DNA of 64,000 bases, from assembly GCA_963717445.1 (NCBI GenBank), contig OY970334.1, positions 965,798 through 1,029,797 on the forward strand. The letters run 5' to 3'. Every line of letters begins with the position of its first letter. Position 1 is the stretch's first letter. The DNA is from an uncultured Bacteroidota bacterium. GTDB taxonomy: Bacteria; Bacteroidota; Ignavibacteria; UBA10030; UBA8401. Below the pieces are notes generated by a model that was given only the letters and a program-made list of their open reading frames with translations, did no database searches and was not told the origin of the DNA. Both the position numbers and the translations under genes were made by a program. Positions 11,106 to 44,439 of this stretch are shown here, piece after piece.

Positions 11106-13130
11106 TTATTTCAACAGCATCATTTTCTTTATAAATATAACTCCCGGCGATGACAATCGGTAGAAATAAATTCCCGATGACATGCTCGACGCGTTGAAAT
11201 TCGCCGTATAGAAGCCCGGCTGCATCACCCCATTGACCAGCGTAGCAACCCTTCTTCCAAGAACATCGAAAATTTCCAGAGTGATTTGGGATGCCTTTGG
11301 AACAGCGTAAGCGATCTGGGTTGAGGGGTTGAACGGGTTCGGATAATTCTGCGCCAACGAGAATTCTTTCGGCAACAGTGATTGAGCATCCGCCACACCC
11401 GTCACCTTGTTTCCCTTGCCGCTGACGGCCACGGAATCCGGTGATCCGAGAGCGTCGTACACCAACTTGATATAGCCGGATTGGCTGCTCGTGTCGGCGG
11501 GTGTAAACGTGATGACGAGATATGCATTGGCTCCAGAGTTGACGGCCACCGATCCAGATGCGGCAGCAAATGCCGAGTTTGATGAAGTGACCGTAAAGTG
11601 GACAGTACCTGGCCCAACATTCGTAAGTTGAATGCTGTCCTTCTTCGATGAAAGAAGGTTCACAGTACCGAATTTAATCTCGTGTCCGGAGACCGTAACA
11701 GGGGTCGTTGTCAGGGTCGGTGTGCCCCAGCGTGGATCGCCAGCGACTATACCATCTGTCGTTGTCATGCTCGCGAGCAATGACGCAGTACCTGCGATAT
11801 TGCAATTCAAAGTATCGAAATAATACTCGACATGCCTCCGGTTGTAGTCATACGTCCAATGCCCCGGAGAATCTTTCGTGAAATTCGGATCGTTGCCATT
11901 TTTTTGTTTCCCATCGCCTCCGAGTGACCGAGGCTCATAGATCCAACGGATCATCTTTGTCATAAGTGGAGGAGTGTTGTTGAGCGTAATGGCGACCTGT
12001 TTGAAACCCTTGGTAGTGTCCTTACCCTGCGCGGCCAACGTTGTGTTCATCCCCCAGGTGAGCCATGGCCCTTCACTTTGATAATAAGGACCGTTCGGGA
12101 GAGGAAGATTTAACATGGCCTGACCTGAATCCGACACCGCATAGTAGTTGTTGGAAATGTTCCATTTTGCGGCGAGGTTTCGATTTGTCAGCACCCATGC
12201 CATTCTCGGCTGCAAGTTGACTGTATCAAGTTCGCCGGGATCGCTGAATTCGACTTGTCGAATGTATGCCGTATCAGCTCCGAGGGCGAAATGGTCGACA
12301 AGCAAGTTGTTCGTTATCTGGAGTATACCTGCGCCCGTCGAGTCAACCCTCCCGAGGGAGAGAAACCCATGGTACGAGACACTATTGACGATGGTGTTAT
12401 GATTAAAAATAAAGTTCTTAATCGGGCCGAGTGTTGACTGGTAATGCCTGACCACTCGGTCTTGCAGGTTGACGAACGTGCAGTTCTCGATATCGCACGT
12501 ATCGACAATATTGTTTCTTAGGTCGATCCCTTTGCCGGCTCCGAAATTGGACGTTCCCTCAAACCCCATGTCTGCGAAGATGGAGTTGGTCACCTTGACG
12601 ACATGCGGTTGTCCGTCTGTTCTAAGCAAATTACCATTGACGGACTTCAAGATGCAGCTATCAACGTAAATGCTGCCGCCGCTGCCGGAGGCGTTCAGGT
12701 CGATGAGACCTCCCTGCAGGTGGTCGAGGTTGGAATCGACCGGTTCGTAGTATCCCGTGATGATAATGTGCTTAAGATAAATAGCGCCACCTGCAAGATT
12801 TGCAAACTCTCCAGGGGGGTTTCCGTTTGTCCCCGGATACAGATAGACCGTAGGATCGTAGTGGCCGCTACTCCCGTACTCACAACGAAAACTGAGGGTC
12901 TTGTTTGCAAATGCAAGTTGCGCGTTGAGGAGATAGACTCCATCTTTCTTTAATACGTAGACGCGTGTTCCGCCCTGAAAAGCGGCGCTTGAGGTGTCCT
13001 GGAAAATCAGCGTGTTGAGATACTGATTTCCCGACCCCACGTAGTCCTGCAAGACTAAATCCTGAGCGAACAAAGCCATCGGAAGCATCAGAACCATCAA
13101 AGCAGGAAAAATGTAACTGAGCTTAAGCAT
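11106..13130 (-). CDS. Secreted right-handed beta-helix protein (pectate-lyase-like fold) with type A T9SS C-terminal sorting domain
   Basis: Signal peptide MLKLSYIFPALMVLMLPMALFAQ (ATG verified at 13128-13130). Repeated N/G/T-rich beta-helix turns. The C-terminus reads LAQNYPNPFNPSTQIAY...GIYFYRL...IKKMMLLK. Confidence 0.6.
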   Translation of the reverse strand: MLKLSYIFPALMVLMLPMALFAQDLVLQDYVGSGNQYLNTLIFQDTSSAAFQGGTRVYVLKKDGVYLLNAQLAFANKTLSFRCEYGSSGHYDPTVYLYPGTNGNPPGEFANLAGGAIYLKHIIITGYYEPVDSNLDHLQGGLIDLNASGSGGSIYVDSCILKSVNGNLLRTDGQPHVVKVTNSIFADMGFEGTSNFGAGKGIDLRNNIVDTCDIENCTFVNLQDRVVRHYQSTLGPIKNFIFNHNTIVNSVSYHGFLSLGRVDSTGAGILQITNNLLVDHFALGADTAYIRQVEFSDPGELDTVNLQPRMAWVLTNRNLAAKWNISNNYYAVSDSGQAMLNLPLPNGPYYQSEGPWLTWGMNTTLAAQGKDTTKGFKQVAITLNNTPPLMTKMIRWIYEPRSLGGDGKQKNGNDPNFTKDSPGHWTYDYNRRHVEYYFDTLNCNIAGTASLLASMTTTDGIVAGDPRWGTPTLTTTPVTVSGHEIKFGTVNLLSSKKDSIQLTNVGPGTVHFTVTSSNSAFAAASGSVAVNSGANAYLVITFTPADTSSQSGYIKLVYDALGSPDSVAVSGKGNKVTGVADAQSLLPKEFSLAQNYPNPFNPSTQIAYAVPKASQITLEIFDVLGRRVATLVNGVMQPGFYTANFNASSMSSGIYFYRLSSPGVIFIKKMMLLK

Positions 13131-13296
13131 AACATCCTCCTTGGTGTGACATGGAATAAATCGTGAGCTATGTGGAACCGAATTCATTTTAGCCAAATTG
13201 TTTCTACCTATGAACATCGAATATTGAACGATGCACTTTGAGCGATCACCTCCTCCCAGCAATGTTGAATTCAGTGAATACTTGCTATGGTTCGTT

Positions 13297-16200
13297 CTAC
13301 AACGAAACCCTCACTCCGAAGTCCACGGTTACGCCATACAGCTCGGCCGTGCGTGGAATCTGCCAAGAAGTAAAATTATCCTTGAACGACGTTGTCTCCT
13401 GGCGATTGGTGAGATTGTTGACATTGAGAATCAAAGAAAATTTTTCACTCAGTTTCTGCTTCAGCGCGAGATCCAATTTCGTAAATGGGTCGACATAGAC
13501 GTCTGCTTGGCCATCTTGAGAATATGATTGGATGTACTGGCCCTGGAAGAATACCGACACCCGTCCGGAAAATCCACCGATGTCATATCCGAGGGCTACG
13601 TTACCGTAGAAATTGGGCTGGCCTTCCGACTCTCTTTTCAGGTCTATCGCAACATGATGGAATACGCTTGAGATAACCGGATTATTGCGAACATATGTTG
13701 TCTCCGAGGTGGCGATTATTTGGCTTCCAATGATGTAGGTCTCGGATCTCGTGATCGATGCGTTGTACGACAGCGTAATATTGCTGAGGTAGCCGGGAAG
13801 GAAACCAAAATTTATCTGATGCTCGAATTCGAACCCCCATGCGTACGAGGTTTTATCCGAATTGTATGGCATGGTCAGGATATGAATTGAGCGCTGACTG
13901 ATGATTGAAGCGAACGGCGCTGTAGTCTGCCACGTCAACCCCATCTTTTGAAACAATGAATCAACCCCATCGATGCTCACGTTGTTCATCTCATGATAGA
14001 GATTGTCGATGACTTTGTAGAACCCGGAGACGGATATGAGACCGATCGTATTGCTGTACACCTGAGTGTTCAATTCGTAATTCCATGCTTTTGTATCCTT
14101 CAGATTAGGATTACCGAGATCGAATATCTCACCGCCGGCTCCGGAGATATTGAAAGAAGGGAGACGGAAATTAAAATCTGGTCTGGCCAACGCCTTGTAG
14201 GCAGCAGCCCGTATTGTCAAGAAATCTGTCGGCGTGACCGACATCTGAGCATTCGGAAGCCAGATGGTTTCAGAATAATGGGTCGTAGAATCCTGGAGCG
14301 GTTGAGGCGTGATCTGCTGTATCCCGATTGTCGAAATTGCACCGTCGGTGAATTTTGCGCCATAGTCGTCCGATTCTTGCTCAAGGCGTACACCGGCGAT
14401 CAGGGTCATCGCCTGACCAATGTTGAATGTGTTCATGAGATATCCTGCGCTTACTCTCTCCTGCACGTTGTAGTCGCCGAGCTCAGCCAGCGCACTCGGA
14501 CCGAATTCGGGGGAACCGCTCACTGTCGCATTTTTCACCAACTGGTACCAGAGTTTTAAAGCATCCACATTGATGAGGGGCGTCATCTTGTACAAACCGA
14601 GAAGGTTGCGGGACGGGGCCGGATAATCGACGAAATCCGATAACGAGGGAGACGAAGATGATCGATTGTAGTAATAGTTTGCAAAACGGCTCGATTCCAA
14701 CATTGTCGTGTCGACGCCGATCGTTGAAAACCCATGGAGGTAGTTGTTGTCATCGAGTTCTTCCTTATTCATCCATCGCGTTCCATCTCTGTACTTTGCT
14801 CCCATTTTCAAATCGCCTGAGAGCTGGTCAAACAATGAGTATGTTTTTGTGACGTTGACGTAAGCGGTTCTCTCTTTATCGAAGTTATTTTGCTGATAAT
14901 AGACAGAGGTAGAGCAAGCGGCGGCCGAAAAGTTATTGAGAGCATAAGGAATGATGTTAAGTTCCGGGTGGTCGTGGCCGGAAGGAACTCCTCCCGGAAC
15001 CACTCCCGGCGTTTCTGTAAACTTCATCGCGAAATCGTACGGATTGTCAACGCGCGATTCGGCGTACGAAGCGCTCCAGTCAACATCGAACCCGCCGAGA
15101 AAATTTTTCCCCTGCAGGGCGGCATTGTCGGTGCTCGTCGTGAGCTCAGTGTAACGGTAGTTATAGTCCCAGGAACCGCCTCCACCCGTAACACCTGGAT
15201 ACACCCGGTCATAGAGCATGATATTTCTGCCGGTGCTGCTGTAGAGTCCGGATAACTTTACCGATCCACTGTCGGGCGTGTTGACGTCGAAGATCGCTTG
15301 ACCGCCATTCCTCGTCCTCACCTCATCAGTGAAATCGACTGTAAAGGGAGCCATTTCGTAATCGACGTTCCACGGCGAAGTGGGATTGTTAATGGGCTTG
15401 TAGTACGCATAACTGTATGTGATATCCTCTTTGCTCCTAATCTTTCTCTCGGTATTGCCCTGTAGCTGCACACCGAGAACATCATCCAAAAACCTCTCGC
15501 CGTACCGACCAGTGATGTCGTACTGTCTCGCCGAATTCATTAGACGATTATAGTCCCCCATGAGATCAAAAACGATTTCCCGCTCCGAAGGAGCTTTCCG
15601 GGTCACCAGATTAATAGAGCCGGCGATCGCGTCTCCATCCTGGTCGGGTGTGAGGGTTTTGTGAAGCTCAATGCCAGCAAGTTCTCCCTGCGAGATGGTG
15701 CTGAGGTCAACATCTCTCGATGTGGAATCGGTCGACGGTATCTTTACTCCATCCACAGTAATGTTGCTGAATCTCGAGCTGAGGCCCCGAAGGACGACTT
15801 TGGTCGCTTCACCGCCCGATCGAATCAGCGAGACTCCCGGCAAGCGGCCAATCGCCTCAGCCGCATTCGCGTCGGGCAGCTCCTTGATCTTCTCTTCCGA
15901 AACGACATTGACAATGGTTTTGGAGGAAACCTGCTCATTAATTGCCGCAACTTGGCCGCGCATTTGCGCAGTGATCACGACCGCCTGCCTCTGCAGTATT
16001 ATCTGGCTGAGACGCACGTTCAACTGTACTTCGTTCTTCGTAGAGAAATCCACTTCGGCGTATTTCGTTTCGTATCCTATGCACGATACTTTAACCGTGA
16101 AGGAGCGATGCGGAATCGCAGTAATACGGTATTCTCCTTCGATATCCGTTGAAGAGCCGAGCGACGTCCCTTCGAGAATGACATTGATTCCGATGAGCTT

Positions 16201-16314
16201 CTCATTCGTCAGGGAATCCGTTACCACGCCCTGCAGCGTCGACTGCCCAAAAGCGACGAGAGGCATTAACGATAAAGCTAAGGCGATGAGCTTTAATGCG
16301 GGAAGTATTTTCAT
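13297..16314 (-). CDS. TonB-dependent outer-membrane receptor (CarboxypepD_reg + plug + barrel)
   Basis: Signal peptide MKILPALKLIALALSLMPLVAFGQ (ATG verified 16312-16314). Plug-domain blocks DANAAEAIGRLPGVSLIR and TKVVLRGLSS are present, followed by a ~800 aa barrel. No SusD-like gene follows it. Confidence 0.8.
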   Translation of the reverse strand: MKILPALKLIALALSLMPLVAFGQSTLQGVVTDSLTNEKLIGINVILEGTSLGSSTDIEGEYRITAIPHRSFTVKVSCIGYETKYAEVDFSTKNEVQLNVRLSQIILQRQAVVITAQMRGQVAAINEQVSSKTIVNVVSEEKIKELPDANAAEAIGRLPGVSLIRSGGEATKVVLRGLSSRFSNITVDGVKIPSTDSTSRDVDLSTISQGELAGIELHKTLTPDQDGDAIAGSINLVTRKAPSEREIVFDLMGDYNRLMNSARQYDITGRYGERFLDDVLGVQLQGNTERKIRSKEDITYSYAYYKPINNPTSPWNVDYEMAPFTVDFTDEVRTRNGGQAIFDVNTPDSGSVKLSGLYSSTGRNIMLYDRVYPGVTGGGGSWDYNYRYTELTTSTDNAALQGKNFLGGFDVDWSASYAESRVDNPYDFAMKFTETPGVVPGGVPSGHDHPELNIIPYALNNFSAAACSTSVYYQQNNFDKERTAYVNVTKTYSLFDQLSGDLKMGAKYRDGTRWMNKEELDDNNYLHGFSTIGVDTTMLESSRFANYYYNRSSSSPSLSDFVDYPAPSRNLLGLYKMTPLINVDALKLWYQLVKNATVSGSPEFGPSALAELGDYNVQERVSAGYLMNTFNIGQAMTLIAGVRLEQESDDYGAKFTDGAISTIGIQQITPQPLQDSTTHYSETIWLPNAQMSVTPTDFLTIRAAAYKALARPDFNFRLPSFNISGAGGEIFDLGNPNLKDTKAWNYELNTQVYSNTIGLISVSGFYKVIDNLYHEMNNVSIDGVDSLFQKMGLTWQTTAPFASIISQRSIHILTMPYNSDKTSYAWGFEFEHQINFGFLPGYLSNITLSYNASITRSETYIIGSQIIATSETTYVRNNPVISSVFHHVAIDLKRESEGQPNFYGNVALGYDIGGFSGRVSVFFQGQYIQSYSQDGQADVYVDPFTKLDLALKQKLSEKFSLILNVNNLTNRQETTSFKDNFTSWQIPRTAELYGVTVDFGVRVSL

Positions 16315-16406
16315 AGTGCTCTCCGTAAAAGTATTGGCGCCAATCTGTAGAGCGCCAACGATAAGGTGAATTGATGATAACTCTCCTCCTCGCCTCTTAT
16401 CTTCCA

Positions 16407-17963
16407 TCACTTCAAAAGAATCATTTTCTTTACTATCACGGTTTCGTTTGTCTCCAAACGATAGAAATAGATGCCGCTTGGAAAGTCACGGCTTGAAAAA
16501 ATCACTTCATGAACTCCCGCAACCTGACGTTCTTTTGCGAGCATTGCAACCTTTTGTCCCAACTCATTAAATACCTCGAGTGTTACATAACTGTTCACTG
16601 GCAACTGATAACTGATTATCGTGCTTGGATTGAACGGGTTGGGAAAATTCTGCGACAGAGATGGCGAACGGGGCGACATCATCTGCCGGTCGTTCGAGAC
16701 ACGAGTCACATAGTCCGATTCAAATGCGCCAAGATCGGGAGCGCTCCCGTTGAACGGCAACCCGACGTTGGTACCTGCATCGATCAGGTCGCTCCCCTCG
16801 GCAAGATGCATAAAAAGGATATCCGGCAAACTTCCATCCGGCTTGCGCGGCCCGGTAACTCCGGCAGTATCCAGACTCACAAAATCCGTGTCTGTCACTG
16901 AAAACGGAGGCAGCCAACTGTTCGTCGCCTGCACGGCGCTTGCCAGCACTGAAACCCCGCCCGTCCCCGCCGAGATACAGTTCTTGATCGTGAGGATTGA
17001 GCCGGTCTTCAGCGCTTCGTTGATGTGGTAATTTGTCCCGTTCCTGTAGCCGGTACAGTTCAGGAGCGTCATCGATCCTCGGTTGTTATTCTGGTCGAAT
17101 CCTTTCACGCGATTGTCGAAGGCGAGACAATTTATCAATGTCATGTTGTGGCGGAGACTATCGGCATTGGAGTTGTCGCCTCCACCCATTTTGAAGCCGT
17201 TGCCGTTGCCGACGCTCGCCGCACCGCTCTTGAGATATCCGTTGTGAAATGTCCAACACATTTCAAAGGTCGTGAAGACGCTGTCCGAGGGACGCAAATA
17301 TCCGTCGCAACCGTCATCTGAATTTTGCCAGGAGCGGCAGCCATAGAAATAATTGTTGGTACCCACGTCAAGCTTTGGAGCAAAACCATCGGCGTTTCCT
17401 TGGCTTGGGTCGGCATTATAGTAGGAATCGCAATTGATGACCCGGTTGTTCGAAGCTCCGCCCCCCAATTGGAGCCCGGTATCTTCGTTTTCGCTGAACG
17501 AACAGTTCTCGATAATATTGTTCGAGCCGCTGATGATCATGCCGTTATCGCCAGCCCTCCAAATATCGAACCCTTTGATGTACCAGTAATTCTTGCTAAG
17601 GTTGATGCCCCTGTTGCTGCCGGAAATCGCCATGGCGCTGAAATCAAGGAATGGCCGCTCCCCGGGATATGCAAAGAGATAGTACATTGCACTGCTTGTT
17701 CCGCTCTTCGGGGTATTGATAGTGCTCGTCAATGAGTATGTACCCCCGCGGACGTACACCGTATCCCCAGCATGCATAATGGACAAAGCTTTGGTGATCG
17801 TCTGCAATGGTGCGTCAATGGTGCCGGCACTCGTATCACTCCCCGAAATTGAAACGTAGAGTTGAGCCTCCATGATATTGAGCATCAGAAGCAAGGCAAT
17901 ACCGACAATAGCGGATCGGGTCGCCAGCAAACTCATCCCCGTTTTTCCACGCGTTGGTTTCAT
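16407..17963 (-). CDS. Pectate-lyase-like beta-helix protein (DUF1565 / PL9-like N-terminus) with type A T9SS C-terminal domain
   Basis: N-terminal TIDAPLQTITKALSIMHAGDTVYVRGGTYS is followed by beta-helix NxxxxN repeats. The C-terminus reads LSQNFPNPFNPSTIISY...GIYFYRL...VKKMILLK. It overlaps the downstream TonB receptor by 4 nt. Confidence 0.6.
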   Translation of the reverse strand: MKPTRGKTGMSLLATRSAIVGIALLLMLNIMEAQLYVSISGSDTSAGTIDAPLQTITKALSIMHAGDTVYVRGGTYSLTSTINTPKSGTSSAMYYLFAYPGERPFLDFSAMAISGSNRGINLSKNYWYIKGFDIWRAGDNGMIISGSNNIIENCSFSENEDTGLQLGGGASNNRVINCDSYYNADPSQGNADGFAPKLDVGTNNYFYGCRSWQNSDDGCDGYLRPSDSVFTTFEMCWTFHNGYLKSGAASVGNGNGFKMGGGDNSNADSLRHNMTLINCLAFDNRVKGFDQNNNRGSMTLLNCTGYRNGTNYHINEALKTGSILTIKNCISAGTGGVSVLASAVQATNSWLPPFSVTDTDFVSLDTAGVTGPRKPDGSLPDILFMHLAEGSDLIDAGTNVGLPFNGSAPDLGAFESDYVTRVSNDRQMMSPRSPSLSQNFPNPFNPSTIISYQLPVNSYVTLEVFNELGQKVAMLAKERQVAGVHEVIFSSRDFPSGIYFYRLETNETVIVKKMILLK

Positions 17964-18138
17964 CGAACAAATCCCTTTCGCTCTATCATAAAAAAGAATG
18001 CGCGTTGCATCCCGAACAGGTACATCTCGTGATATTCATTGCCATACTATTTCGCCAACGATATTTTAGATTTTTAGAATGACCAGAATTTCTTGTCAGG
18101 GACACACATCGAGTTGGCATAAAAAGCCATTTTTCCCT

Positions 18139-18165
18139 TAATCGTTTACTTTATCGGTAACGTAA
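18139..18165 (-). promoter_or_regulatory. Conserved upstream motif, copy 1 (TAATCGTTTACTTTATCGGTAACGTAA), ~175 bp upstream of the PL9-like / TonB receptor / beta-helix operon
   Basis: Direct sequence identity with the copies at 20623-20649 and 44742-44775. All three lie upstream of minus-strand transcription units for secreted pectinolytic or T9SS proteins. Confidence 0.45.
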
Positions 18166-18244
18166 TATCGTGCAAGAATCTCCTGCGCGTGCCCGGTTTC
18201 CGGACATAACCCCTATTATTGATGATTACACCAATACGACCCCG

Positions 18245-18283
18245 TCGCTCGCAAGAATTAGTTAGGTCAATTCTTGCGAGCGA
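18245..18283 (-). terminator. Perfect 15-bp stem / 9-nt loop hairpin downstream of the 18342..20516 gene
   Basis: TCGCTCGCAAGAATT-agttaggtc-AATTCTTGCGAGCGA lies 60 nt past the stop codon. Confidence 0.45.
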
Positions 18284-18341
18284 ACGTCGGGCGCAAACGA
18301 CTGTCTCGCACCCAGAAGCGACCGACCCGATAGTCGAGCTG

Positions 18342-20516: not shown

Positions 20517-20622
20517 AACAATCCTCCTTCGACTAAGTAAAAATATTGTTGATTAGCAAAACACTTTCGTAATTCCACACACTTCTTTTGCGATAACCTA
20601 AGATGCTCCAACTTCCTTTCCA

Positions 20623-20649
20623 TAATCGTTTACTTTACCGGTAACTTAA
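20623..20649 (-). promoter_or_regulatory. Conserved upstream motif, copy 2 (TAATCGTTTACTTTACCGGTAACTTAA), ~110 bp upstream of the low-GC T9SS protein gene
   Basis: A 22/23-nt match to copy 1. It sits between a terminator-like palindrome (20673-20693) and the start codon at 20516. Confidence 0.45.
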
Positions 20650-20670
20650 AATAGACAAACAAATATCACA

Positions 20671-20693
20671 CCGGTTCGACAATTGTCGAAACC
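20671..20693 (-). terminator. Near-perfect palindrome GGTTCGACAA|TTGTCGAA(A)CC immediately after the stop of the 1277-aa gene, followed on the transcribed strand by a T-rich tract
   Basis: Read directly. On the minus strand the hairpin is followed by ...TATTTGTTTGTCTATTTT. Confidence 0.45.
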
Positions 20694-24645: not shown

Positions 24646-24646
24646 A

Positions 24647-25933: not shown

Positions 25934-25945
25934 GTTCGCCGTCAT

Positions 25946-29334: not shown

Positions 29335-29337
29335 GTA

Positions 29338-31671: not shown

Positions 31672-31676
31672 CTATA

Positions 31677-33446: not shown

Positions 33447-33465
33447 CTCTTCCTAGCTCATGATG

Positions 33466-34998: not shown

Positions 34999-35086
34999 AA
35001 GATGTCTCCTTAAAAAGATTTCAAAAAAAATCGTTTTGTTTAGAGTGATTTTGCTCCGATATAAAAAATCATGCCGCGCATTTCCT

Positions 35087-36574: not shown

Positions 36575-37611
36575 TATATTTGCGCTCCCAGGCTGATGCG
36601 ATGAGCGCTTCCCAGATATGTCCCCATCGATCCGTAGCTGTAATCGAGAGAGAGTTTTACAGAACCAACAGCTTGCTTCACTCCACCACCGACCGTCAAT
36701 CCTTCATAATCGTAATTGAACTTATACCCTGCTCTCAGTGCAAAAACGCCGGCGAACTCATACTCCACTCCGAGGTGTTCTTGCTGTTCGTAATCATTCG
36801 GCTGGTAGAGGTCAAAGGCGACGCCAATACGATTCTCCTCGTCGGTAGCCAGCAATGCATCTTTTCCAATCAGGTCTGCTGCAACTCCCCACCGGAAGAG
36901 GAGAGGAACAGGGCTGGATTGTATTGCATACGTGACGTTCGGTCCAAAATTCTGAACGGACGCGCCGATTTGAACCGATCGAAAACCAGTGTTGTATCGA
37001 ATTCCAAAATCGTAGATCACTCCGCTGGCCCACGTTTTCACTTCCTCAAACGAACCCTGACTTACCTGGGCCAAAACCATCTGCCCATTGTATAAAGATT
37101 CATGAGCATATTTTACCGTCAACCCTGTTGAAAATTTGTCGGTGAGGCTTCGCGCATAGCTCAACCCCACAAGATAACTGAACGGGTGGAACGTGTTCCC
37201 GGTCAATCCCGGGTTGACTTCCTGATTGATATACGGACGCGTGGCAACAGCTTCATCAAATTCTCCATAATCAACGTATTGAATCTGGAGGCCGAGCGCG
37301 CCAAGATTCCCGATCGGTGTAGCGTATGACAACGCTCCCTGACGCGTATCAAAAATCCATTGGATAAAGGTCGACGAAAATTCCTGAGTTTCCACGAGCG
37401 CCAGACCGCTCGGGTTCCAAAAAACTGCGTCGGCCCCTGACGCCCAGACACTGTATGCGTCGCCTAATGCAGTTGCTCTCGCAACGGGCATCACTTCCAA
37501 AAATTGCATCGAAGTGCTTCCGACTTTTTGTGAGAATGCATTAGACGATAACATGGCTAAAGCGACAATCGGCAAGGAGTTTTTTATCATTCTGTTCATC
37601 GTTGCGATCAT
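36574..37611 (-). CDS. Outer-membrane beta-barrel protein, FadL/PorV/PorP-SprF-like; candidate partner of the adjacent type-B sorting-domain protein
   Basis: Signal peptide, then ARATALGDAYSVWASGADAVFWNPSGLA. About 345 aa and ends in an aromatic-rich strand. It lies 5 nt downstream of the type-B sorting-domain gene. Confidence 0.45.
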   Translation of the reverse strand: MIATMNRMIKNSLPIVALAMLSSNAFSQKVGSTSMQFLEVMPVARATALGDAYSVWASGADAVFWNPSGLALVETQEFSSTFIQWIFDTRQGALSYATPIGNLGALGLQIQYVDYGEFDEAVATRPYINQEVNPGLTGNTFHPFSYLVGLSYARSLTDKFSTGLTVKYAHESLYNGQMVLAQVSQGSFEEVKTWASGVIYDFGIRYNTGFRSVQIGASVQNFGPNVTYAIQSSPVPLLFRWGVAADLIGKDALLATDEENRIGVAFDLYQPNDYEQQEHLGVEYEFAGVFALRAGYKFNYDYEGLTVGGGVKQAVGSVKLSLDYSYGSMGTYLGSAHRISLGAQI

Positions 37612-37615
37612 CCGA

Positions 37616-39859
37616 TCAATGAATTATCACAAATTTACCATGCGCTCTCTCCCCGGTCGCTGCATCATCCACGGTAAAGAAGTAAACGCCGGAGGCCATC
37701 AGTTGATTATTCCTCGTGATCTGGAACCATTCCTGAGAATACCCTGACGTTGGCGGAGTATCATGCAGAATCGTCTGGACGAGCGCGCCGCTGTAAGAAA
37801 AAATTCTGATCGTACACTTTTGCGTCAGACCGAAAAATCCGATCATGTCGTTGAAGTCACCGTTGGTTGATGTTCCGACAGCGCCGTTTGTCACGATAAG
37901 CGGATTTGGAACAACCCACACTTTGCCGAGCGTTGTCGCTGCCGGACTTTGCGTGTTGTGCAATGTAAGATTCGTTACTCCGCTTCTCATCCCGAGCGCA
38001 TCGACCGAGTAGATAATATAGTACGCGTCTTCGCCGGCATTGCTATCGCGGTCATAGAGCAAGTAGGTGGAATCTCGCCAGTAGCGTGGATCTTTTTTCC
38101 CAACGCTGTCCATCAAAGTCCAGGGGCCAAGTGCGCTTATAGAACGATATGCCAGGTAATAGCTGAAAGGAGCATGCAGTTTCTGAGTCGTGAATGATTC
38201 CACCTCGTCTCCCCAGAGAATCCTGTTGACCCCGGCGCTTGTATTTTCTACTGTGAACACCGGTGCAGGCACCGGTATAGGAATCGAATTTGCGTACTGC
38301 CCGGTCTGGGGCGTGAACCGCGGATCGAATTGAACCGAATCATACTTCACCGGTTTGGCTGAACCCGTGTACATTTGTATCGCCCTGTCGGCCACATCTC
38401 TGATTGATACAACGCCGGGAGTGACATACCAGGGCAGTTCGTGAGTCTGAAGATATGTGCTTCCAATGACAGGAGGATTGCCGCCGGCAGACCCGTAGGT
38501 CAGTATGTTGTACCAGCTCGAGACGGGGTGAAAAACGTTCCCCGATGTCTCGACACCGCCTCCCATGTCGATGTAGACTGTATCACCGGCATCCCCTGCG
38601 CCATAACCCACTACCTCCGCAATTGTAAAGTGAAGATGTTCATTCGGTGGAAAAGTGTACGGCCCGAAAACATATCCGTGAACTACTGGTTGCTTCCAAC
38701 CAAGATTTGAGGATGGTTTAGCCCTTCCTTTCCAATACGCCCAGTCGTTTGCATTACCTGGGTAGAAACTTGTCGAATCCGCTGTCCCGCCGAATGCTTG
38801 AGTCTTGCGCGTAACAATATCGGTCCATGATTCTATCTTTGTGATATCGACATTCCGATTTTCGTAGCGATTGGTATATGGCTGTTTGAGCCGGTTCGTT
38901 TCATCCCACACGTAAGCACTGTCTGCCGCCGCTGGATAATTCGTCTGACCTCGCACAGCAAGATGATCATGATCATAGTACAATGGAAGGAAACCCACCG
39001 CCTGCGGCGAGTCCAACCCACCCCGATCACCGGGTTCGGACCAGAGGTCAAAAAAATCAGGGTCGGGTTTGCCGATTCTCTCTTGATTGTATGACATCCA
39101 ACGCTTCAAATCAAAGCGAGCGTACATATCCTTTGCTCGCATATCATTGCTTTCCGACCATTCGTTGTATAACCTCTCGTACCCGAACATCGAGGGGCAC
39201 AGTCCGTATCCCCATCCAACAAATGCATCGGTGATAGGGTCGGAGTTTGTGCTTACCAAATCGTATTCATAAATAATGAAACAGTTGTATCCCGGATAAC
39301 TCCATGCCCTGCTCGTTCGCGTCACTGAAATATTGAGGGGAGTGGTCCACGTCGCCACGATAATTTCCTCAGCCTCGTTGGGATTGTATGCCGGATTCAG
39401 TGATCCGTTTTCTAAGACCGGAAAATTTTCCGTGCGGGATATCGATCCTGGAAAACTGTAAACGCCCGCAACCGGAACCGTTTGACCGTCGCCCGCAGTC
39501 GCAATGGCACCACACGCGACAGTTTGGCGCGTTCCGTCAAGTGCCCCTGCAAGGTAAAGCCCGCCTCCCATGGAATTGTGCTGCCCCGCATATTCTCTTT
39601 TGTTGATGATGAGTCGGGAATTCGGCGGCCATTCCATCGATGAAAAACCGGCGGTCATTCCTGTTTGTCCGCCATCGAAAGCCCTTCCTAACTCACCGGT
39701 GTTATAGACAGTCTGATGAAGCATACTGCGGGTGTGAGTTTGGGGAGTCCGGTCTTGCGCACGCACAACCGAAACAAAGAGCGTCAGGAAAGCAAAAATC
39801 GTTGCTGATATTTTCATAGTCATGCCCTGCATCAGATTCCAGGCATACTCAAAATTCAA
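37616..39859 (-). CDS. 747-aa secreted protein of unknown function with type B T9SS C-terminal sorting domain
   Basis: Signal peptide MKISATIFAFLTLFVSVVRAQ. The C-terminus VVPNPLIVTNGAVGTSTNGDFNDMIGFFGL...CTIRIFSYSGALVQTIL...GVYFFTV fits the type B pattern PNxxxPNGDGxND...IFNRxG. No catalytic motif I recognise. The start overlaps the upstream TonB receptor by 11 nt. Confidence 0.55.
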   Translation of the reverse strand: MNFEYAWNLMQGMTMKISATIFAFLTLFVSVVRAQDRTPQTHTRSMLHQTVYNTGELGRAFDGGQTGMTAGFSSMEWPPNSRLIINKREYAGQHNSMGGGLYLAGALDGTRQTVACGAIATAGDGQTVPVAGVYSFPGSISRTENFPVLENGSLNPAYNPNEAEEIIVATWTTPLNISVTRTSRAWSYPGYNCFIIYEYDLVSTNSDPITDAFVGWGYGLCPSMFGYERLYNEWSESNDMRAKDMYARFDLKRWMSYNQERIGKPDPDFFDLWSEPGDRGGLDSPQAVGFLPLYYDHDHLAVRGQTNYPAAADSAYVWDETNRLKQPYTNRYENRNVDITKIESWTDIVTRKTQAFGGTADSTSFYPGNANDWAYWKGRAKPSSNLGWKQPVVHGYVFGPYTFPPNEHLHFTIAEVVGYGAGDAGDTVYIDMGGGVETSGNVFHPVSSWYNILTYGSAGGNPPVIGSTYLQTHELPWYVTPGVVSIRDVADRAIQMYTGSAKPVKYDSVQFDPRFTPQTGQYANSIPIPVPAPVFTVENTSAGVNRILWGDEVESFTTQKLHAPFSYYLAYRSISALGPWTLMDSVGKKDPRYWRDSTYLLYDRDSNAGEDAYYIIYSVDALGMRSGVTNLTLHNTQSPAATTLGKVWVVPNPLIVTNGAVGTSTNGDFNDMIGFFGLTQKCTIRIFSYSGALVQTILHDTPPTSGYSQEWFQITRNNQLMASGVYFFTVDDAATGERAHGKFVIIH

Positions 39860-42800
39860 GAATCAGTCCGAAATTATAGGACCGTGGTGAATTGTCATAA
39901 ATCAAAAACGACTGATCGACGGGGAACGAAGTGGCTTTTATCGAATTCGTCGCATTCCAATAGAGCACGCCGTGCTGCGGGTCGTTGATCGTATAGTTTT
40001 CGTACGGCTGAATATTTGGGTTCGTCTCTCCCGCATTCGTTGCTGCAAACAGGTAATCGTAATTAAGAATCTTGTCGTTGAAGACGTTGAACACCTCAAT
40101 GTAAATCGTTCCCTTCGTACCGAAGAAATCATCGATCGTTCTCGTCAATCGCAAATTTGTGTTATATTCCGCCGGCGTCCGAGCACCGTTAATAAGCGTG
40201 ACATCTTTGGAAGAAGTGTAGGGACGACCACTCCGGGCAAAAGAACTAAGAGAAAGGGTAAAATTTTCAAGCGGACGCCCGCCGAACATCTCCGGCCCAA
40301 ACTCCTGCGGCGTGGTGTATTCGAGTGTGATGATAAGATTGTTCGTCCTGTCGAAATCGAGAAGGATATCCCTGCTGGGAACGTCGGACAAATCCGTCGT
40401 CACCTCGCCGAGCGAATCTTTTCTGAAAATCGGCGGCGCGCCTGAAACTGTTGCGCTTTTGCCCGTCGCAACGCTATACTGATAGCCGATCGTTCCCGTA
40501 AAGTTTCCTTTTCTTTTTGCTAATGTTGCACGGAATCCTCTGATATCGGCATAGTCCCTATTGTAGTATGTGTTGTACGTAACTGCGCTTGTGACGTCGG
40601 TGAAGGTCGCCTGCTCGATAAGGTTTTTCACATCTTTGTAGTACCCGCTCACGTCGAGCGTGAACCCCTCCCCCAACCCTTGCATGACCCCGATATCGTA
40701 ACTGTTGGTCGTCTCGGGCTCGAGCCGGGGATTTCCCAGCGTGACAGGAGTATTGAATTGTGGTTGCACCGTTGTCGCAACGATGTATTGAAATGAAGGC
40801 CTTTGCATGAACGAGCCGTAGTTGAGATGAAAAACCGTGTTAACGGAAACGGGAAACGAAATGCCGGCCCGGGGTTGCAACCGTCCTATGAGGGGTGTTC
40901 TTGCTCTTTCGGCATCCACGATACTTCTCGCAACGACATGGCCGGAGTCGTTCACGATAGCGAACGGGTCGAACTCATTCACAAAGTAATCTTGGTTTGA
41001 ATTCCACATATCGAACCGCAAGCCGATGTTCGCAATCATCCCTTCAAATTCCATCTTGTCTTGGACATACAGTGCCCCTTCGACCGGCTTGGCAGAGTAA
41101 TTTGCTTGCTGGAGTGTGGAGCTGGTGTTGATATTGTCGTCAGCTTGGATTGAGTACGAATTGACCTGGATGCCGCCATTGAGCAGATGCGACTTCGTCA
41201 CTTGACTTGTGAGAGAAGCTTCGAAAGAGACTGTCAGCGTTTTCTCATCTCTGAAGTCGTCGTTTCCTTTCAGGTACGTGAAAAGGTCTGGCCCGGTTAC
41301 AGGAGCCGTGATGACTGTGTTTGTGTTTTCCGGATTCACGATGAGGGAATCGGGAAGTGAGCTAGGCCATGGAGTAGAACCGAGGTTCAGCTTTGTTGAA
41401 AGAGCATTCATTTTCAGTTCGTAAAACGTGCTGGGGCTAAGGGTTTTCGAGAAACGTGCCCCCATTTGCCCGTTCTCCGTTTCTTGATATTCGATGCCGA
41501 GCGTCCTATCCCACAACCAGTTGTAGAAGCCGAGGCCATCGGAACTCGGGAAAACATTTGTGTTGCCCATGGAATAGCCGCCACTGACGAGCAACACCGC
41601 ACCCCCTCCAAAATCGGTAGAGATGTTTCCCATGAACTGCCGGTCTACGTCAGGTTGCTGGGTTGGGAATTCCGGATTGACGACGTTTGAACGCATCGCA
41701 ACGAACATCGTCATCATATCGTTGAGCGGACCGCCCGAGCTTCCTTCCACAGAGTAATCGATGTTATTTCCATAGTCTTGGAAGAGGTCTCTTTTCATCT
41801 GCATACGCCAGAGCGTGTACGCTACTTGAAGCATCACGGCCGTATCCTGAGCGTAACGGTTTATAAGTCCCGAACCCATGCTTGAGATCAGCGGTTGGTT
41901 GCTGTTTTCAGGATCACCGGTCAACCAAAAATTCTTGTTGAGTAACTTTGAGAGATACGGATTGCCGGTCGTATCATAAACGCTTGGCCCAAAGGTCTTT
42001 CGCCCCGGCGCTCGAACCCGAGCCTCAACAGTCGTCCTCCATTTGTCCGGCTTTCCTTCCTTCATCGTGATATTGACAACTCCGGACTGGGCGTTTCCAT
42101 ACTGGGCCCCGAACCCGCTCGTGACAACTTCTACCTCCTCCACTGCGCTCAAGATGGGAATGAATGCCGATGTGGCGTCAAACGGGTTGACAATTCCCAT
42201 CCCTTGCAGTGTGTAATATTCTTCGCCGGTCCGACCGCCACGAAAATGGCCATCGGTAACATCGGCAGCGAGGCCGATGACATCTGTAACATCCCTCATC
42301 CCGGCAATTTGTTTCACATCATCGGTCCGGACAATTTCGCTCGTGGAAGTTTTTTCAGGTTGAACGTCGGGCCTCGTTGCAACCACTTCTACAACTCCTT
42401 GCGTCAGGGTTGTCGATGAGAGAGAGAAATCGACCGTCGTCGTTCTATCGGAGTTAATGATAACTCCATGCTCAAGCACCTTCTGGTAGCCGACGATTGA
42501 GGCCTCAACGTCATAGACGCCCGGAACTAAATTCAAAATAAAGTATGATCCATCGACATGTGTTGCCGCTCCCAATTTTGTGCCGACGATAACGACATTG
42601 CAGCCGATGAGCGGTTCCTTCGTATCGCGGTCGACAATAGTCCCTGAAAGTTTCCCGACAGTTTGGGCAGAAAGTGAACCGGCGGTGAAAATCAGAATGG
42701 CAATGATGCAGAGGAGAATCCGATTCTTCTCAAGGCCATAGCAACACCGACGGTAAATCATTAAACCATTGGCACGATGCATCGTTCGAACACCATCCAT

Positions 42801-42869
42801 GCTCATAGTTCGTTTTCTCCGGGGGGAGTCATTGTATCGTGACGGCTCCGTGGTTGATGTTCGGACCAT
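39849..42869 (-). CDS. TonB-dependent outer-membrane receptor (CarboxypepD_reg + plug + barrel)
   Basis: Signal peptide, then TVGKLSGTIVDRDTKEPLIGCNVVIVGTKLGAATHVDGSYFI (CarboxypepD_reg-like), a plug, and a long barrel ending ...NFGLILEF with a C-terminal aromatic. The track start is over-extended; the real start is probably MIYRR or MSMDG. Confidence 0.8.
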   Translation of the reverse strand: MVRTSTTEPSRYNDSPRRKRTMSMDGVRTMHRANGLMIYRRCCYGLEKNRILLCIIAILIFTAGSLSAQTVGKLSGTIVDRDTKEPLIGCNVVIVGTKLGAATHVDGSYFILNLVPGVYDVEASIVGYQKVLEHGVIINSDRTTTVDFSLSSTTLTQGVVEVVATRPDVQPEKTSTSEIVRTDDVKQIAGMRDVTDVIGLAADVTDGHFRGGRTGEEYYTLQGMGIVNPFDATSAFIPILSAVEEVEVVTSGFGAQYGNAQSGVVNITMKEGKPDKWRTTVEARVRAPGRKTFGPSVYDTTGNPYLSKLLNKNFWLTGDPENSNQPLISSMGSGLINRYAQDTAVMLQVAYTLWRMQMKRDLFQDYGNNIDYSVEGSSGGPLNDMMTMFVAMRSNVVNPEFPTQQPDVDRQFMGNISTDFGGGAVLLVSGGYSMGNTNVFPSSDGLGFYNWLWDRTLGIEYQETENGQMGARFSKTLSPSTFYELKMNALSTKLNLGSTPWPSSLPDSLIVNPENTNTVITAPVTGPDLFTYLKGNDDFRDEKTLTVSFEASLTSQVTKSHLLNGGIQVNSYSIQADDNINTSSTLQQANYSAKPVEGALYVQDKMEFEGMIANIGLRFDMWNSNQDYFVNEFDPFAIVNDSGHVVARSIVDAERARTPLIGRLQPRAGISFPVSVNTVFHLNYGSFMQRPSFQYIVATTVQPQFNTPVTLGNPRLEPETTNSYDIGVMQGLGEGFTLDVSGYYKDVKNLIEQATFTDVTSAVTYNTYYNRDYADIRGFRATLAKRKGNFTGTIGYQYSVATGKSATVSGAPPIFRKDSLGEVTTDLSDVPSRDILLDFDRTNNLIITLEYTTPQEFGPEMFGGRPLENFTLSLSSFARSGRPYTSSKDVTLINGARTPAEYNTNLRLTRTIDDFFGTKGTIYIEVFNVFNDKILNYDYLFAATNAGETNPNIQPYENYTINDPQHGVLYWNATNSIKATSFPVDQSFLIYDNSPRSYNFGLILEF

Positions 42870-44439
42870 ATTGTATATCTATGTTCGATTTTGACCCGGT
42901 CAAGTTCATCAGAATTACGTCTCTCGTTTTTCGTCCGTCGGCATAAACCATGGGCAATATTCCGCCGAACGTTTGCATACCGTTCACATTGATCTTTGAA
43001 CAATCAAGAATAGAAAGGAGCGGTCCCCATTCCGGCCGTACAGCAATGTTTCTGAACTCAATCATATCGGCATCACTACAGGCGATCCCTTTGGTCGAAA
43101 CGATAGCGATGCTGTCGAACGTGACATCCTCAACCGGCATTTCCGGTAGACCCAGAATTTCGATCGCTGCTTTCTTTCCGTACGAGCACGAAATATTCGA
43201 ATAATGAATGTCTCTGATTCTCGGTGTAGCGTTTGTCACCGCTTCGGCGGGAAGCCGGCTCCCTGTGTAGAGCATATTGATTCGGAGTGCCTCTTGCTGG
43301 ACAGTATCCGCAGAGAGGTTACGGAACCACATTTTTTCGACCGTCCCGCCGCGCCCTCGCGCAGTCTTGATTCGGACAATGCGTTCAGTTCCATGAAAAC
43401 GGCAATCAAAGGCATAAACGTTGCGAATGCCCCCCAACGTCTCGCTCCCGATGACGATACCTCCGTGTCCTTGTAGTCCTACACAATGACGTATGACGAC
43501 ATCCTCTGTCGGAACGTCCACGCGCATGCCATCTTTATCCCGCCCTGATTTAATCGCTATGCAATCGTCGCCCGTGCAGAATTCGCAATATTCAATCAAG
43601 ACATTCTTGCATGAAGAGGGATCGACACCATCGCCGTTCGGCGTGCGGCCGTATGGCCCATCCGTAATAATCTTCACTTTACGAACGATGATGTTCTCGC
43701 AGTATGTAGGAGTGATGGTCCAAAAAGCGCCGTAAAGAAATGTGACACCCTCGACCAGAATATTGCTGCAATTCATCGGCTGGAAAAATGCAGGCCGCAG
43801 AACTCTTCCGTCGGTTCCGTCAAACACCCGTTCTCGAATCGGCACATTCTTGTCGACCATCATCGCGAGTTCCTGTGAACCTTTCTTGGAATTCTTCCAA
43901 TTCCACCAAGGCTTTCCCTGGCCATTGAGGGTGCCCTCTCCCGTGATCGCAATGTTGGTTTTGTGATCGGCGTAGATGAAAGCGGAATATTTGTAGCATT
44001 CCGTGTCCTCATGTCGCGAGAATACAGCGGGCAGATAATCGTTCGGATCCTGACTAAAAAGAAGTTCAGCCCCCTTTGCAATGTAAAGGTCAACGTTGCT
44101 CTCCAGGTGAATGGCTCCCGTTAACCATCGCCCCGCTGGAACAACGACCCTTCCTCCCCCCGCTTTGGAAGCGGCGTTGATCGCTTTGCGAATTGCTTCC
44201 GTGTTTTTTACCACGCCCCCTTCCTTTGCACCAAATTCTCTGATATTGTAAATTCTATCCGCGAAAAAAGGGCGAGCAATTTGAGGCATTTCAAACGGAG
44301 CCTCAATGGGAAGGATTTGGTCGGGAGCGCCCGAGAGAAGAATTCCGGGCTGTTGGGCTAATGCTTGAACGAATCCGTAGAAGAAAAGCGAGGTCGCCAG
44401 ACGAGAGTGGAGATATTGTGTCCGGTGCAGAATCATCAT
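42829..44439 (-). CDS. Glycoside hydrolase family 28 (polygalacturonase / rhamnogalacturonase-like)
   Basis: NGDGVDP, GDDCIAIKSG, GHGGIVIGSE and RIKT are present. It has a signal peptide. Confidence 0.75.
   Translation of the reverse strand: MMILHRTQYLHSRLATSLFFYGFVQALAQQPGILLSGAPDQILPIEAPFEMPQIARPFFADRIYNIREFGAKEGGVVKNTEAIRKAINAASKAGGGRVVVPAGRWLTGAIHLESNVDLYIAKGAELLFSQDPNDYLPAVFSRHEDTECYKYSAFIYADHKTNIAITGEGTLNGQGKPWWNWKNSKKGSQELAMMVDKNVPIRERVFDGTDGRVLRPAFFQPMNCSNILVEGVTFLYGAFWTITPTYCENIIVRKVKIITDGPYGRTPNGDGVDPSSCKNVLIEYCEFCTGDDCIAIKSGRDKDGMRVDVPTEDVVIRHCVGLQGHGGIVIGSETLGGIRNVYAFDCRFHGTERIVRIKTARGRGGTVEKMWFRNLSADTVQQEALRINMLYTGSRLPAEAVTNATPRIRDIHYSNISCSYGKKAAIEILGLPEMPVEDVTFDSIAIVSTKGIACSDADMIEFRNIAVRPEWGPLLSILDCSKINVNGMQTFGGILPMVYADGRKTRDVILMNLTGSKSNIDIQYGPNINHGAVTIQ

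Follow-up and report, generated by a model that had tools for sequence, protein, structure and literature searches.

The 64-kb stretch of DNA analysed here (hereafter "the window") belongs to contig OY970334.1 of an uncultured, Ignavibacteria-like bacterium of the FCB (Fibrobacteres-Chlorobi-Bacteroidetes) group, and its portion from about 1240 to 44439 is almost certainly a homogalacturonan (pectin) utilisation locus. Seventeen contiguous open reading frames (ORFs), all on the minus strand, lie within 11106-44439, the interval that an original prediction, made from the sequence, had described as a pectin-degradation locus without SusD. Our assignments, which are based on Pfam, NCBIfam and PDB homology, confirm the pectin-specific carbohydrate-active enzymes (CAZymes), and no Pfam match to the SusD family was obtained in any scanned ORF of the window. 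The extent given to the locus was too narrow: catabolic genes continue past 11106 on the same strand as far as 1240, so that the functional unit spans ~1240-44439, about 43 kb. The most informative feature of this unit, overlooked by that prediction, is the presence of PorV/PorQ-family and FadL-like outer-membrane barrels in the operon of a TonB-dependent receptor (TBDR). The two TBDRs of the locus and the genes associated with them are the following.

39849..42869, minus strand: TBDR1006, a divergent TBDR (PF13715, 50.7 bits; partial matches to NCBIfam TBDR models)
37616..39859, minus strand: P747, a conserved surface-protein candidate of 747 aa, matching no family but the PorZ tail
36574..37611, minus strand: PorV/PorQ-family 14-strand outer-membrane barrel of 345 aa (NF033709, 214 bits against a cut-off of 90)
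35087..36574, minus strand: P495, FadL-superfamily outer-membrane barrel (AlphaFold2 (AF2) model and Foldseek)
13297..16410, minus strand: TBDR1037, Xanthomonas/Caulobacter-type receptor (TIGR01782, 342 bits against a cut-off of 310)
11106..13262, minus strand: P718, a cargo with a type A C-terminal domain (CTD) and an Ig-like domain (TIGR04183, 41.1 bits; PF22544, 29.2 bits)

The receptor cassette

TBDR1006, P747, the PorQ-like barrel and the FadL-like P495 follow each other in this order on one strand and form a translationally coupled cassette. The stop of TBDR1006 and the start of P747 overlap by 11 nt, and the stop of the 345-aa barrel and the start of P495 by 1 nt.

The TBDR1006 sequence consists of an N-terminal CarboxypepD_reg domain, a TonB-box-like segment (GVVEVVATRP), a plug (E-value = 0.47) and a barrel; searched by sequence against the PDB, it found no match. 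The SusC/RagA model TIGR04056 aligns with residues 73-186 only, with 37.3 bits against a cut-off of 368. TBDR1037 exhibits Pfam matches to the plug, the barrel and the N-terminal CarboxypepD_reg domain, and its TIGR04056 score of 65 bits (same cut-off) comes from the N-terminal extension only. As both scores are far under the cut-off, neither receptor belongs to the SusC/RagA family. The two TBDRs of the original prediction are both present, TBDR1037 as a full TIGR01782 member and TBDR1006 as a divergent receptor, and its proposal of a non-SusC/SusD architecture holds, there being no SusD either.

P747 starts with a signal peptide, followed by a predicted mostly-beta N-domain (residues ~80-500), a fibronectin type III (FN3) domain (~535-635) and a CTD (~648-747) modelled as a beta-sandwich (~648-745); its AF2 model has a mean pLDDT of 80 and a pTM of 0.80. 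More than 600 homologues with 50-91% identity, devoid of any Pfam domain, are found in Ignavibacteria, KSB1 and "Bacteroidota" metagenome-assembled genomes (MAGs). In the databases they carry either no name or that of "T9SS C-terminal target domain-containing protein" (T9SS, type IX secretion system). P747 itself exhibits no Pfam or NCBIfam family besides the PorZ tail (NF052228, E-value = 1e-4), and Foldseek returned for its model matches to tandem FN3 domains only. The P747 family profile, searched against the whole PDB, found a single match, a weak one, with the CTD of Porphyromonas gingivalis PorZ (5m11_A, E-value = 6.5e-4), in an alignment that begins at a PNP motif, takes in "GL..C.I.I...G.L" and ends with the C-terminal strand. 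Residues ~35-80 of P747 are nearly invariant in 60 homologues, yet are modelled with a pLDDT of ~50; this segment, conserved though not structured alone in the model, is a candidate for the binding of a partner.

The tails of the family were compared with several classes of CTDs. A hidden Markov model (HMM) of 73 P747-family tails gives the PorZ CTD 26.1 bits, against 16.3 bits with one built on 65 canonical tails encoded in these loci. The tail of a distant relative, P0306, matches the PorZ model with an E-value of 1.8e-7, the PorU model with 1.7e-5 and the generic type A model with 1.1e-3. The CTD of P747 is ~100 aa long and the six canonical tails of the locus are ~75 aa; in P. gingivalis, the retained CTDs of PorZ and PorU measure 96 and 108 aa, and the cleaved ones 67-88 aa (PMC11285876). 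The mean pairwise identity of P747 is higher in the tail (0.57) than in the body (0.48), whereas that of the PL9 and PL1 lyases encoded in the locus is lower in the tails (0.40) than in the catalytic bodies (0.52-0.53).

Three other identities of P747 were considered and rejected. The first is that of a protein with a type B CTD, as originally predicted for one tail of the locus. P747 obtains 14.9 bits on PF13585 (CHU_C), with a cut-off of 27, and has no TIGR04131 match at E-value ≤0.01, the PorZ-like tail taking the place of this assignment; on TIGR04183 it does not reach an E-value of 0.01. The second is homology to SusD: P747 is mostly beta, lacks a lipobox and has no SusD match in Pfam. 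As for orthology to PorZ, no PorZ match lies outside the tail and Foldseek reveals no propeller; P747 is not a PorZ orthologue, since the two-beta-propeller body of PorZ is absent.

Two of the proteins that the original prediction had counted as unknown are recognisable, these being the two barrels. The 345-aa barrel, a clear family member by NF033709, stays under both equivalog cut-offs (PorQ, 83.7 bits against 220; PorV, 77.2 against 250), and matches PF19572 (37.5 bits) and the Flavobacterium johnsoniae PorV structure (6h3i_F, E-value = 1.2e-6). The 495-aa protein, P495, is modelled by AF2 as a 14-strand barrel of the FadL fold (mean pLDDT of 82). Its best Foldseek match in the PDB is BamG of the Bacteroides thetaiotaomicron barrel assembly machinery (9hiv_F, E-value = 2.5e-18); FadL, TodX and TbuX match with E-values of 1e-13 to 1e-18, and PorV with just 2.5e-6. 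PF03349 is present in some P495 homologues. The possibility that P495 is BamG itself was rejected, as it matches neither the BamG equivalog nor any NCBIfam model at all.

Conservation of the cassette

A genome scan by the P747-family alignment yielded 80 loci, against which the proteins of the window were run by tblastn; the synteny counts below consider only loci with enough flanking sequence. In 70 of 71 loci a TBDR1006 homologue directly precedes P747; a PorV/PorQ-like barrel directly follows it in 65 of 66, and P495 comes next in 61 of 62, all of them being encoded on one strand. The only exception is L040, in which the P747 match is truncated as well. Likewise, P718 is found directly downstream of the TBDR1037 homologue in all seven loci with room for it (L010, L016, L019, L020, L021, L027 and L067). 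TBDR1037 with P718 would be the second importer of the locus. Both sets of counts bear out the original proposal that the TBDRs go with non-SusD partners.

The record titles of the 80 loci name Ignavibacteriales, Ignavibacteriaceae, KSB1, Calditrichia and one MAG labelled as Rhodothermales. The best locus, L001, is 92% identical to the window and collinear with it. Pectin CAZymes are encoded within 10 kb in 40 of the 47 loci with P747 orthologues of at least 48% identity. The paralogues of 41-47% identity are instead in alginate-type loci, which contain PL6 (Chondroitinase_B) lyases with CTDs, Alginate_lyase plus Hepar_II_III_C (PL15/17-type) proteins, major facilitator superfamily (MFS) transporters similar to that of the window, short-chain dehydrogenases/reductases (SDRs) and GntR-like proteins. 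Nine MAGs carry two cassettes per genome. Some of the MAGs with a cassette are labelled Chitinophagaceae, Chitinophaga pinensis, Synechococcus, Chlorobiaceae or Deferribacteres, in conflict with the Ignavibacteria/KSB1 affinity of their sequences; these labels look like binning or naming errors.

Beyond these loci, an exhaustive search by profile against 1.84 billion cluster representatives gave 3222 matching clusters (50% identity) at an E-value ≤1e-3, 1066 at 1e-10 and 72 at 1e-30. About 22 of the clusters match over the full length, and many proteins of 600-800 aa match best at the profile positions ~510-731, corresponding to the FN3 domain and the CTD. Four distant relatives retain N-domain core motifs such as R-[ST]-x-x-W-S-x-P-x-Y-x-x-F-I-I and GP[YFW]-x-[LFI]-x-P-x-[DE], interspersed with insertions that vary. 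Their genes follow that of a TBDR with the CarboxypepD_reg-Plug-barrel layout and precede that of a 313-354-aa protein, which in all four cases belongs to the PorV/PorQ family (NF033709, 162-194 bits). The neighbours of these distant trios are GHL10/GHL6 genes, GH2 with LacI and DUF6298 genes, or dehydrogenase genes. All five barrels, from the window and the four distant trios, obtain more bits from the PorQ equivalog than from the PorV one. A FadL-like fourth gene was not seen in the four distant trios, and seems to be peculiar to the polyuronate branch, which comprises the pectin and alginate loci. In a distant trio beside GHL10 genes (L082, 10062-13293), it is three small proteins (302, 214 and 189 aa), and not a FadL-like barrel, that come after the PorQ-like barrel; branches thus differ in the accessory genes that follow the trio.

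We found no description of a cassette combining a TBDR with a PorV/PorQ-like barrel in the open-access full-text literature searched, and within that literature the trio is apparently undescribed. A 2026 review of bacterial glycoside transporters deals with SusC/D and gammaproteobacterial TonB-dependent transporters only, and mentions neither Ignavibacteria nor T9SS nor FadL.

Enzymes, secreted cargo and surrounding genes

The remaining ORFs of the 11106-44439 interval encode the pectin enzymes, a regulator and T9SS cargo.

42829..44439, minus strand: GH28, 536 aa (PF00295, 131 bits)
33466..34998, minus strand: P510, T9SS type A cargo (TIGR04183, 38.5 bits)
31677..33446, minus strand: PL1-type pectate lyase with a type A CTD (PelZ, E-value = 4.7e-35)
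30448..31671, minus strand: GH105 unsaturated (rhamno)galacturonyl hydrolase without CTD (PF07470, 353 bits)
29338..30405, minus strand: LacI-family regulator (PF00356, PF13377, PF00532)
27802..29334, minus strand: GDSL/SGNH esterase fused to DUF4350 (PF13472, 65.6 bits; PF14258, 29.4 bits)
25946..27802, minus strand: second GH28, without CTD (PF00295, 113 bits)
24647..25945, minus strand: CE8 pectin methylesterase without CTD (PF01095, 63.4 bits)
20693..24526, minus strand: P1277, T9SS type A cargo (TIGR04183, 39.3 bits)
18342..20516, minus strand: P724, T9SS type A cargo in a GC dip (TIGR04183, 33.8 bits)
16407..17963, minus strand: PL9 pectate lyase with a type A CTD (PF22842, Pel9A-like, 82 bits)

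The PL1, PL9, CE8 and GH105 enzymes, the two GH28s and the LacI regulator of the original prediction are borne out by Pfam, NCBIfam and PDB homology, as is its esterase fusion, of which the GDSL domain is of the PaeY-like pectin acetylesterase type (PaeY model, E-value = 1.1e-26). The GH28 gene at 42829..44439 opens the receptor operon. Its product has a signal peptide and neither CTD nor lipobox, matches a BT4155-like alpha-D-galacturonidase model (E-value = 2.9e-99, under the equivalog cut-off), and is presumed to be a periplasmic galacturonidase. The second GH28 matches both galacturonidase and rhamnogalacturonidase models of NCBIfam, and its listed GTG start is probably too far upstream. 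Further matches are those of the PL1-type lyase to the pectate lyase 9buj in the PDB (E-value = 4.9e-69), of PL9 to PelN (E-value = 9e-66, 222 bits), of GH105 to YteR-type structures (E-values of 1e-98 to 6e-84) and of CE8 to the PemA model (E-value = 1.2e-11). The LacI regulator gene is kept in orthologous loci.

Type A tails above the cut-off of 23 bits (TIGR04183/PF18962) were identified in P510, PL1, P1277, P724, PL9 and P718, with scores from 28.7 (PL1, TIGR04183) to 42.1 bits (PL9, TIGR04183), in agreement with the six originally counted. PL1 and PL9 are the only recognisable enzymes among them. The delivery of the enzymes by T9SS, as originally proposed, fits these two lyases, but the two GH28s, CE8, the esterase fusion and GH105 exhibit plain signal peptides with no CTD, and accordingly are most likely periplasmic. 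As predicted, lipoproteins are absent, no canonical lipobox following any signal peptide of the locus proteins. The predicted signal peptides of 12 locus proteins (among them those with genes starting at 39859, 37611, 36574 and 34998) end in A/S/G/P-Q, so that the mature N-terminus would be glutamine. Such a pattern is known as the "Bacteroidetes Q-rule", which PMC5837995 describes as not valid for the entire FCB group.

P510 comes after the cassette in most pectin loci. P1277 consists of two tandem P510-like modules, its two halves matching P510 by BLASTP with E-values of 7e-45 and 1e-41 (35-36% identity each). In L018, L019, L024, L026, L028 and L034, which come from KSB1, Calditrichia and some Ignavibacteria, the cassette is followed by three or four P510-like genes in tandem. 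The P510-like proteins are an expanding family of T9SS cargo. Searches of the P718, P724 and P510 sequences against the PDB found nothing useful. No core T9SS gene was found among the scanned ORFs of the 64-kb window; what points to a T9SS in the source genome is indirect, consisting of the six canonical CTDs, the one PorV/PorQ-family gene and the published statement that T9SS genes may be present in Ignavibacteriota (PMC11285876).

Downstream of position 11106, the catabolic block reads as follows.

9589..10938, minus strand: DUF4861 protein (PF16153, 311 bits; BT_3233 family, E-value = 3.7e-31)
8136..9545, minus strand: UxaC, glucuronate/galacturonate isomerase (PF02614, 692 bits)
7157..7990, minus strand: KduI-family isomerase (PF04962, 88.5 bits)
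5818..7089, minus strand: MFS inner-membrane transporter (PF07690, 204 bits)
4985-5767, minus strand: SDR, KduD-like by context (Pfam match)
3762-4967, minus strand: 2-hydroxyacid dehydrogenase (Pfam match)
2507-3784, minus strand: LarA_N-like protein (Pfam match)
1240-2415, minus strand: PfkB sugar kinase, KdgK-like by context (Pfam match)

From its context, the MFS transporter presumably carries hexuronate, and it is likewise by genomic context alone that we infer specific roles for the SDR, the 2-hydroxyacid dehydrogenase, the LarA_N-like protein and the PfkB kinase. Inside this hexuronate block, the LarA_N-like gene and the D-2-hydroxyacid dehydrogenase gene overlap by 23 nt (2507-4967). 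UxaB and UxaA would be expected in such a block and neither was seen in the window; the LarA_N-like protein and the dehydrogenase may form an alternative tagaturonate branch.

The tight packing described originally, with gaps of 0-90 bp and overlaps, holds for most of the locus, in which overlaps measure 1-41 nt; five gaps are of 120-378 bp. The GC content is ~0.49-0.51 throughout, except for a fall to 0.43 at 18-20 kb and a rise to 0.54 at 22-24 kb. The P724 region (17964-20692) has a GC content of 0.43 compared with ~0.50 elsewhere, and the largest gap of the locus (378 bp) precedes P724; the region might form a transcription unit of its own or have been inserted later. Between the stop of P1277 and the start of P724 lies a perfect 16-bp palindrome, TTCGACAATTGTCGAA, at 20675-20690. 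It is the single perfect 16-mer found when the intergenic gaps were searched for a repeated palindrome resembling a LacI operator, and no motif is shared between the gaps. Rfam and tRNA scans of the window gave no match.

The neighbouring genes on the upstream side are unrelated to the locus.

45886-51779, upstream: AddAB-like helicase/nuclease genes
52613-55888: tricorn-like S41 protease with PD40 repeats
56249-58069: AMIN-amidase
58438-62020: group of sensor kinase, M54 peptidase and sigma-54 response regulator
62801-63931: IS110-family transposase

The upstream boundary of the locus is kept in the closest genome (L001) with 79% nucleotide identity. A 366-aa ORF without family match (45007-46107, plus strand) overlaps there with a 219-aa ORF (45163-45822, minus strand); the 79% identity with L001 covers the region 44440-46107, indicating that something is conserved in it.

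Proposed uptake mechanism and related systems

The gene content of the locus is consistent with the following route. T9SS would place PL1 and PL9 on or outside the cell, where the lyases would depolymerise pectin, and the two TBDRs would import the unsaturated and saturated oligogalacturonides. In the periplasm, CE8 and the acetylesterase would de-esterify these products, and the GH28s and GH105 would trim them to monomers. The MFS transporter would take up the monomers for the 2-keto-3-deoxygluconate (KDG) pathway, with cytoplasmic catabolism by UxaC, KduI, the KduD-like SDR and the KdgK-like PfkB kinase under the control of LacI.

The proteins of the receptor cassette probably act together in this uptake. 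Our preferred reading of P747, which we hold to be modestly probable, is that of a T9SS-exported receptor partner, held by an uncleaved CTD on its cognate PorQ-like barrel. The analogy is with PorZ and PorU, T9SS substrates from which the CTD is not removed; the PorZ CTD binds PorQ, and PorU stays on PorV (PMC10202324). The authors of that work hypothesise that cognate PorV-like barrels shield CTDs from cleavage. P747 would similarly cross the outer membrane via T9SS, retain its CTD, and stay at the surface with the CTD bound to the neighbouring PorQ-like barrel; for this CTD-to-barrel tether specifically, we regard the chances as evenly balanced. P747 would then capture oligo- or polyuronate for TBDR1006 as its partner or lid, in the slot occupied by the SusD lipoprotein in Bacteroides, the putative glycan binding being ascribed to its arginine-rich invariant N-domain. 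The FadL-like barrel would be an additional membrane subunit in the polyuronate branch, and P495 could serve as a further membrane platform, perhaps for the P510-type cargo that follows it.

Several points weigh against this interpretation of P747. It is from gene adjacency and a weak CTD similarity (E-value ~1e-4) that we infer the retention of the CTD and the contacts of P747 with the barrel and the TBDR. The contrast in CTD conservation is modest, and suggestive in kind, since P510, a presumed cleaved cargo, behaves like P747 with a tail identity (0.49) above that of the body (0.42). The canonical type A HMM still gives P747 tails ~24 bits, so that the P747 tail is a derived class of type A rather than a separate or unrelated one. 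The T9SS of the source genome is presumed, as is export through it, and the role of the FadL-like barrel is not explained by the model.

Another role for P747 would be that of a surface-anchored enzyme, for example from an unrecognised family of polyuronate lyases or hydrolases, which would cut polymer at the receptor mouth rather than act as a non-catalytic binding lid; the anchoring to the barrel could still hold in that case. The very high conservation, which amounts to 50-60% identity between phyla and includes numerous invariant residues (D, E, R, H, Y and W), would suit an enzyme, as would the large domain (~450 aa) without a known fold match and the confinement of the close family to pectin and alginate loci, both of which concern lyase substrates. 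However, P747 matches no catalytic family of CAZymes, Pfam or NCBIfam, and CTD-bearing lyases are already encoded in the loci. Moreover, the superfamily also adjoins GHL10 and GH2 genes with the core of the N-domain kept, for which a structural partner fits better than one catalytic chemistry. We consider the enzyme unlikely.

Still less probable, in our view, is that the PorQ-like barrel, P747 and the FadL-like barrel constitute a locus-specific T9SS accessory outside the importer, which would shuttle or attach the CTD cargo of the locus itself (PL1, PL9, P510 and others), the adjacency of the TBDR reflecting co-regulation only. PorV is a cargo shuttle, PorQ and PorZ take part in the attachment complex (PMC5562754, PMC10202324), the P747 tail resembles that of PorZ, and genes for CTD cargo follow the cassette in most pectin loci. 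But the partner that stays invariant across the four distant branches is the TBDR and not any CTD cargo, a gene for such cargo does not come immediately after several of the alginate-type cassettes, P747 has no match to the beta-propeller body of PorZ, and the stop of the TBDR overlaps the start of P747.

As for an ordinary carbohydrate utilisation locus containing a TBDR (CUT locus), in which the TBDRs would act alone, as in Xanthomonas or Caulobacter, among unrelated passengers, TBDR1037 is a bona fide TIGR01782 receptor, and receptors of this kind function in Gammaproteobacteria in the absence of SusD (Blanvillain 2007, cited by PMC13543919), but the order and strand conserved in 61-70 of 62-71 loci of several phylum-level lineages, the recurrence of the trio in distant branches and the overlapping start and stop codons make this highly improbable.

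Returning to P747 as a receptor partner, the cassette can be compared with several known systems. As in the SusC/SusD-type polysaccharide utilisation loci (PULs), such as the homogalacturonan PUL of B. thetaiotaomicron, the genes of a TonB-dependent outer-membrane importer and a regulator stand together with those of the CAZymes that act on a single glycan; the receptor has an N-terminal CarboxypepD_reg-like extension before the TonB box; the gene of a surface partner, here a putative one, lies immediately downstream of that of the receptor; and the locus is multiplied within a genome, with a different substrate per copy. Of what defines such PULs in PULDB, the locus has the CAZymes and the regulator and lacks both defining proteins: the receptor is not of the SusC/RagA family, and in place of SusD, an alpha-helical TPR lipoprotein with an N-terminal lipobox, there is a mostly-beta partner candidate that bears an FN3 domain and a CTD. 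Unlike in those PULs, surface placement would presumably depend on T9SS and a dedicated barrel rather than on lipoproteins, and the operon contains one or two extra FadL-superfamily barrels. The scarcity or absence of susCD in the CAZyme clusters of Ignavibacteriales has already been published (PMC10576277), so that a SusD-less locus in this lineage follows a known pattern.

The PorQ-PorZ and PorV-PorU pairs of P. gingivalis have in common with the cassette the association of a PorV/PorQ-family barrel with a protein, here presumably T9SS-exported, whose CTD is unusually long; the likeness of the P747 CTD to that of PorZ is specific but weak. In the known pairs the CTD is uncleaved and tethers the protein (PMC10202324, PMC11285876). 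P747 differs from PorZ by the absence of the beta-propellers, and the barrel falls below the PorQ and PorV equivalogs. Furthermore, the present pair belongs to a nutrient-uptake operon beside a TBDR and has many paralogues, unlike secretion machinery encoded once per genome. In the type B system SprB-SprF, the gene of the cargo likewise adjoins that of its own outer-membrane barrel, and according to PMC9143113 the adjacent PorP/SprF-like barrels are needed for the surface anchorage of type B cargos. The CTD of P747 is, however, of the type A/PorZ-like class and not TIGR04131/PF13585, the barrel is PorV/PorQ and not PorP/SprF, and the known type B cargos are adhesins, not receptor partners. BamG, the best structural match of P495, is also a 14-strand barrel of the FadL fold, and serves as a membrane platform gripping the surface-exposed BamH by its extracellular loops (PMC12578637). 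P495 differs in missing the BamG equivalog and in being encoded in a glycan-uptake cassette, and any binding of a protein by P495 is purely putative.

The CUT loci of Xanthomonas and Caulobacter and the TBDR-containing CAZyme operons of marine Gammaproteobacteria resemble the locus in that they dispense with SusD and combine a TBDR with CAZymes, an inner-membrane transporter and a LacI-type regulator. By this looser definition, the locus is a CUT locus, having a TBDR of TIGR01782, the subfamily that TBDR1037 shares with them, together with CAZymes, the MFS transporter and LacI. The receptors of those loci are not known to have a conserved surface partner or a T9SS, in contrast to the two receptors of the window, both of which have a conserved CTD-bearing partner encoded downstream. 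In the chitin locus of F. johnsoniae (ChiA) and for the cellulases of Cytophaga, enzymes with CTDs are exported by T9SS and combined with TBDR import, as would be the case in the present locus. The T9SS-linked glycan loci of Flavobacteria and Cytophaga still use SusC/SusD-like pairs, which the locus lacks.

The trio, with the FadL-like barrel added in the polyuronate branch, appears to be an undescribed form of TonB-dependent glycan import, and the anchoring mechanism proposed for it is plausible. More tentatively, and with a little less than even confidence, we propose that the trio of a TBDR, a P747-superfamily protein and a PorQ-like barrel represents a separate and widespread class of outer-membrane glycan "utilisome", replacing SusC/SusD in Ignavibacteria, KSB1, Calditrichia and relatives, with a T9SS-delivered surface partner that an uncleaved CTD, and not a lipid anchor, would keep non-covalently on a dedicated FadL-superfamily barrel. 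Ignavibacteria, Kapabacteria, KSB1 and Calditrichia are common degraders of polymers in soils, sediments and bioreactors. PUL prediction (PULDB, dbCAN-PUL) sees little in these lineages because it relies on the susC/susD pair, and the conserved marker trio would offer a handle to find and type their glycan-uptake loci. If the proposal is true, the role of PorV/PorQ-type barrels would widen from secretion machinery to permanent anchors in nutrient uptake, and there would be a second, lipid-independent way to put a binding lid on a TonB-dependent transporter. The superfamily, with its variable N-domains, would then mark PUL-like loci for many substrates where PUL prediction fails.

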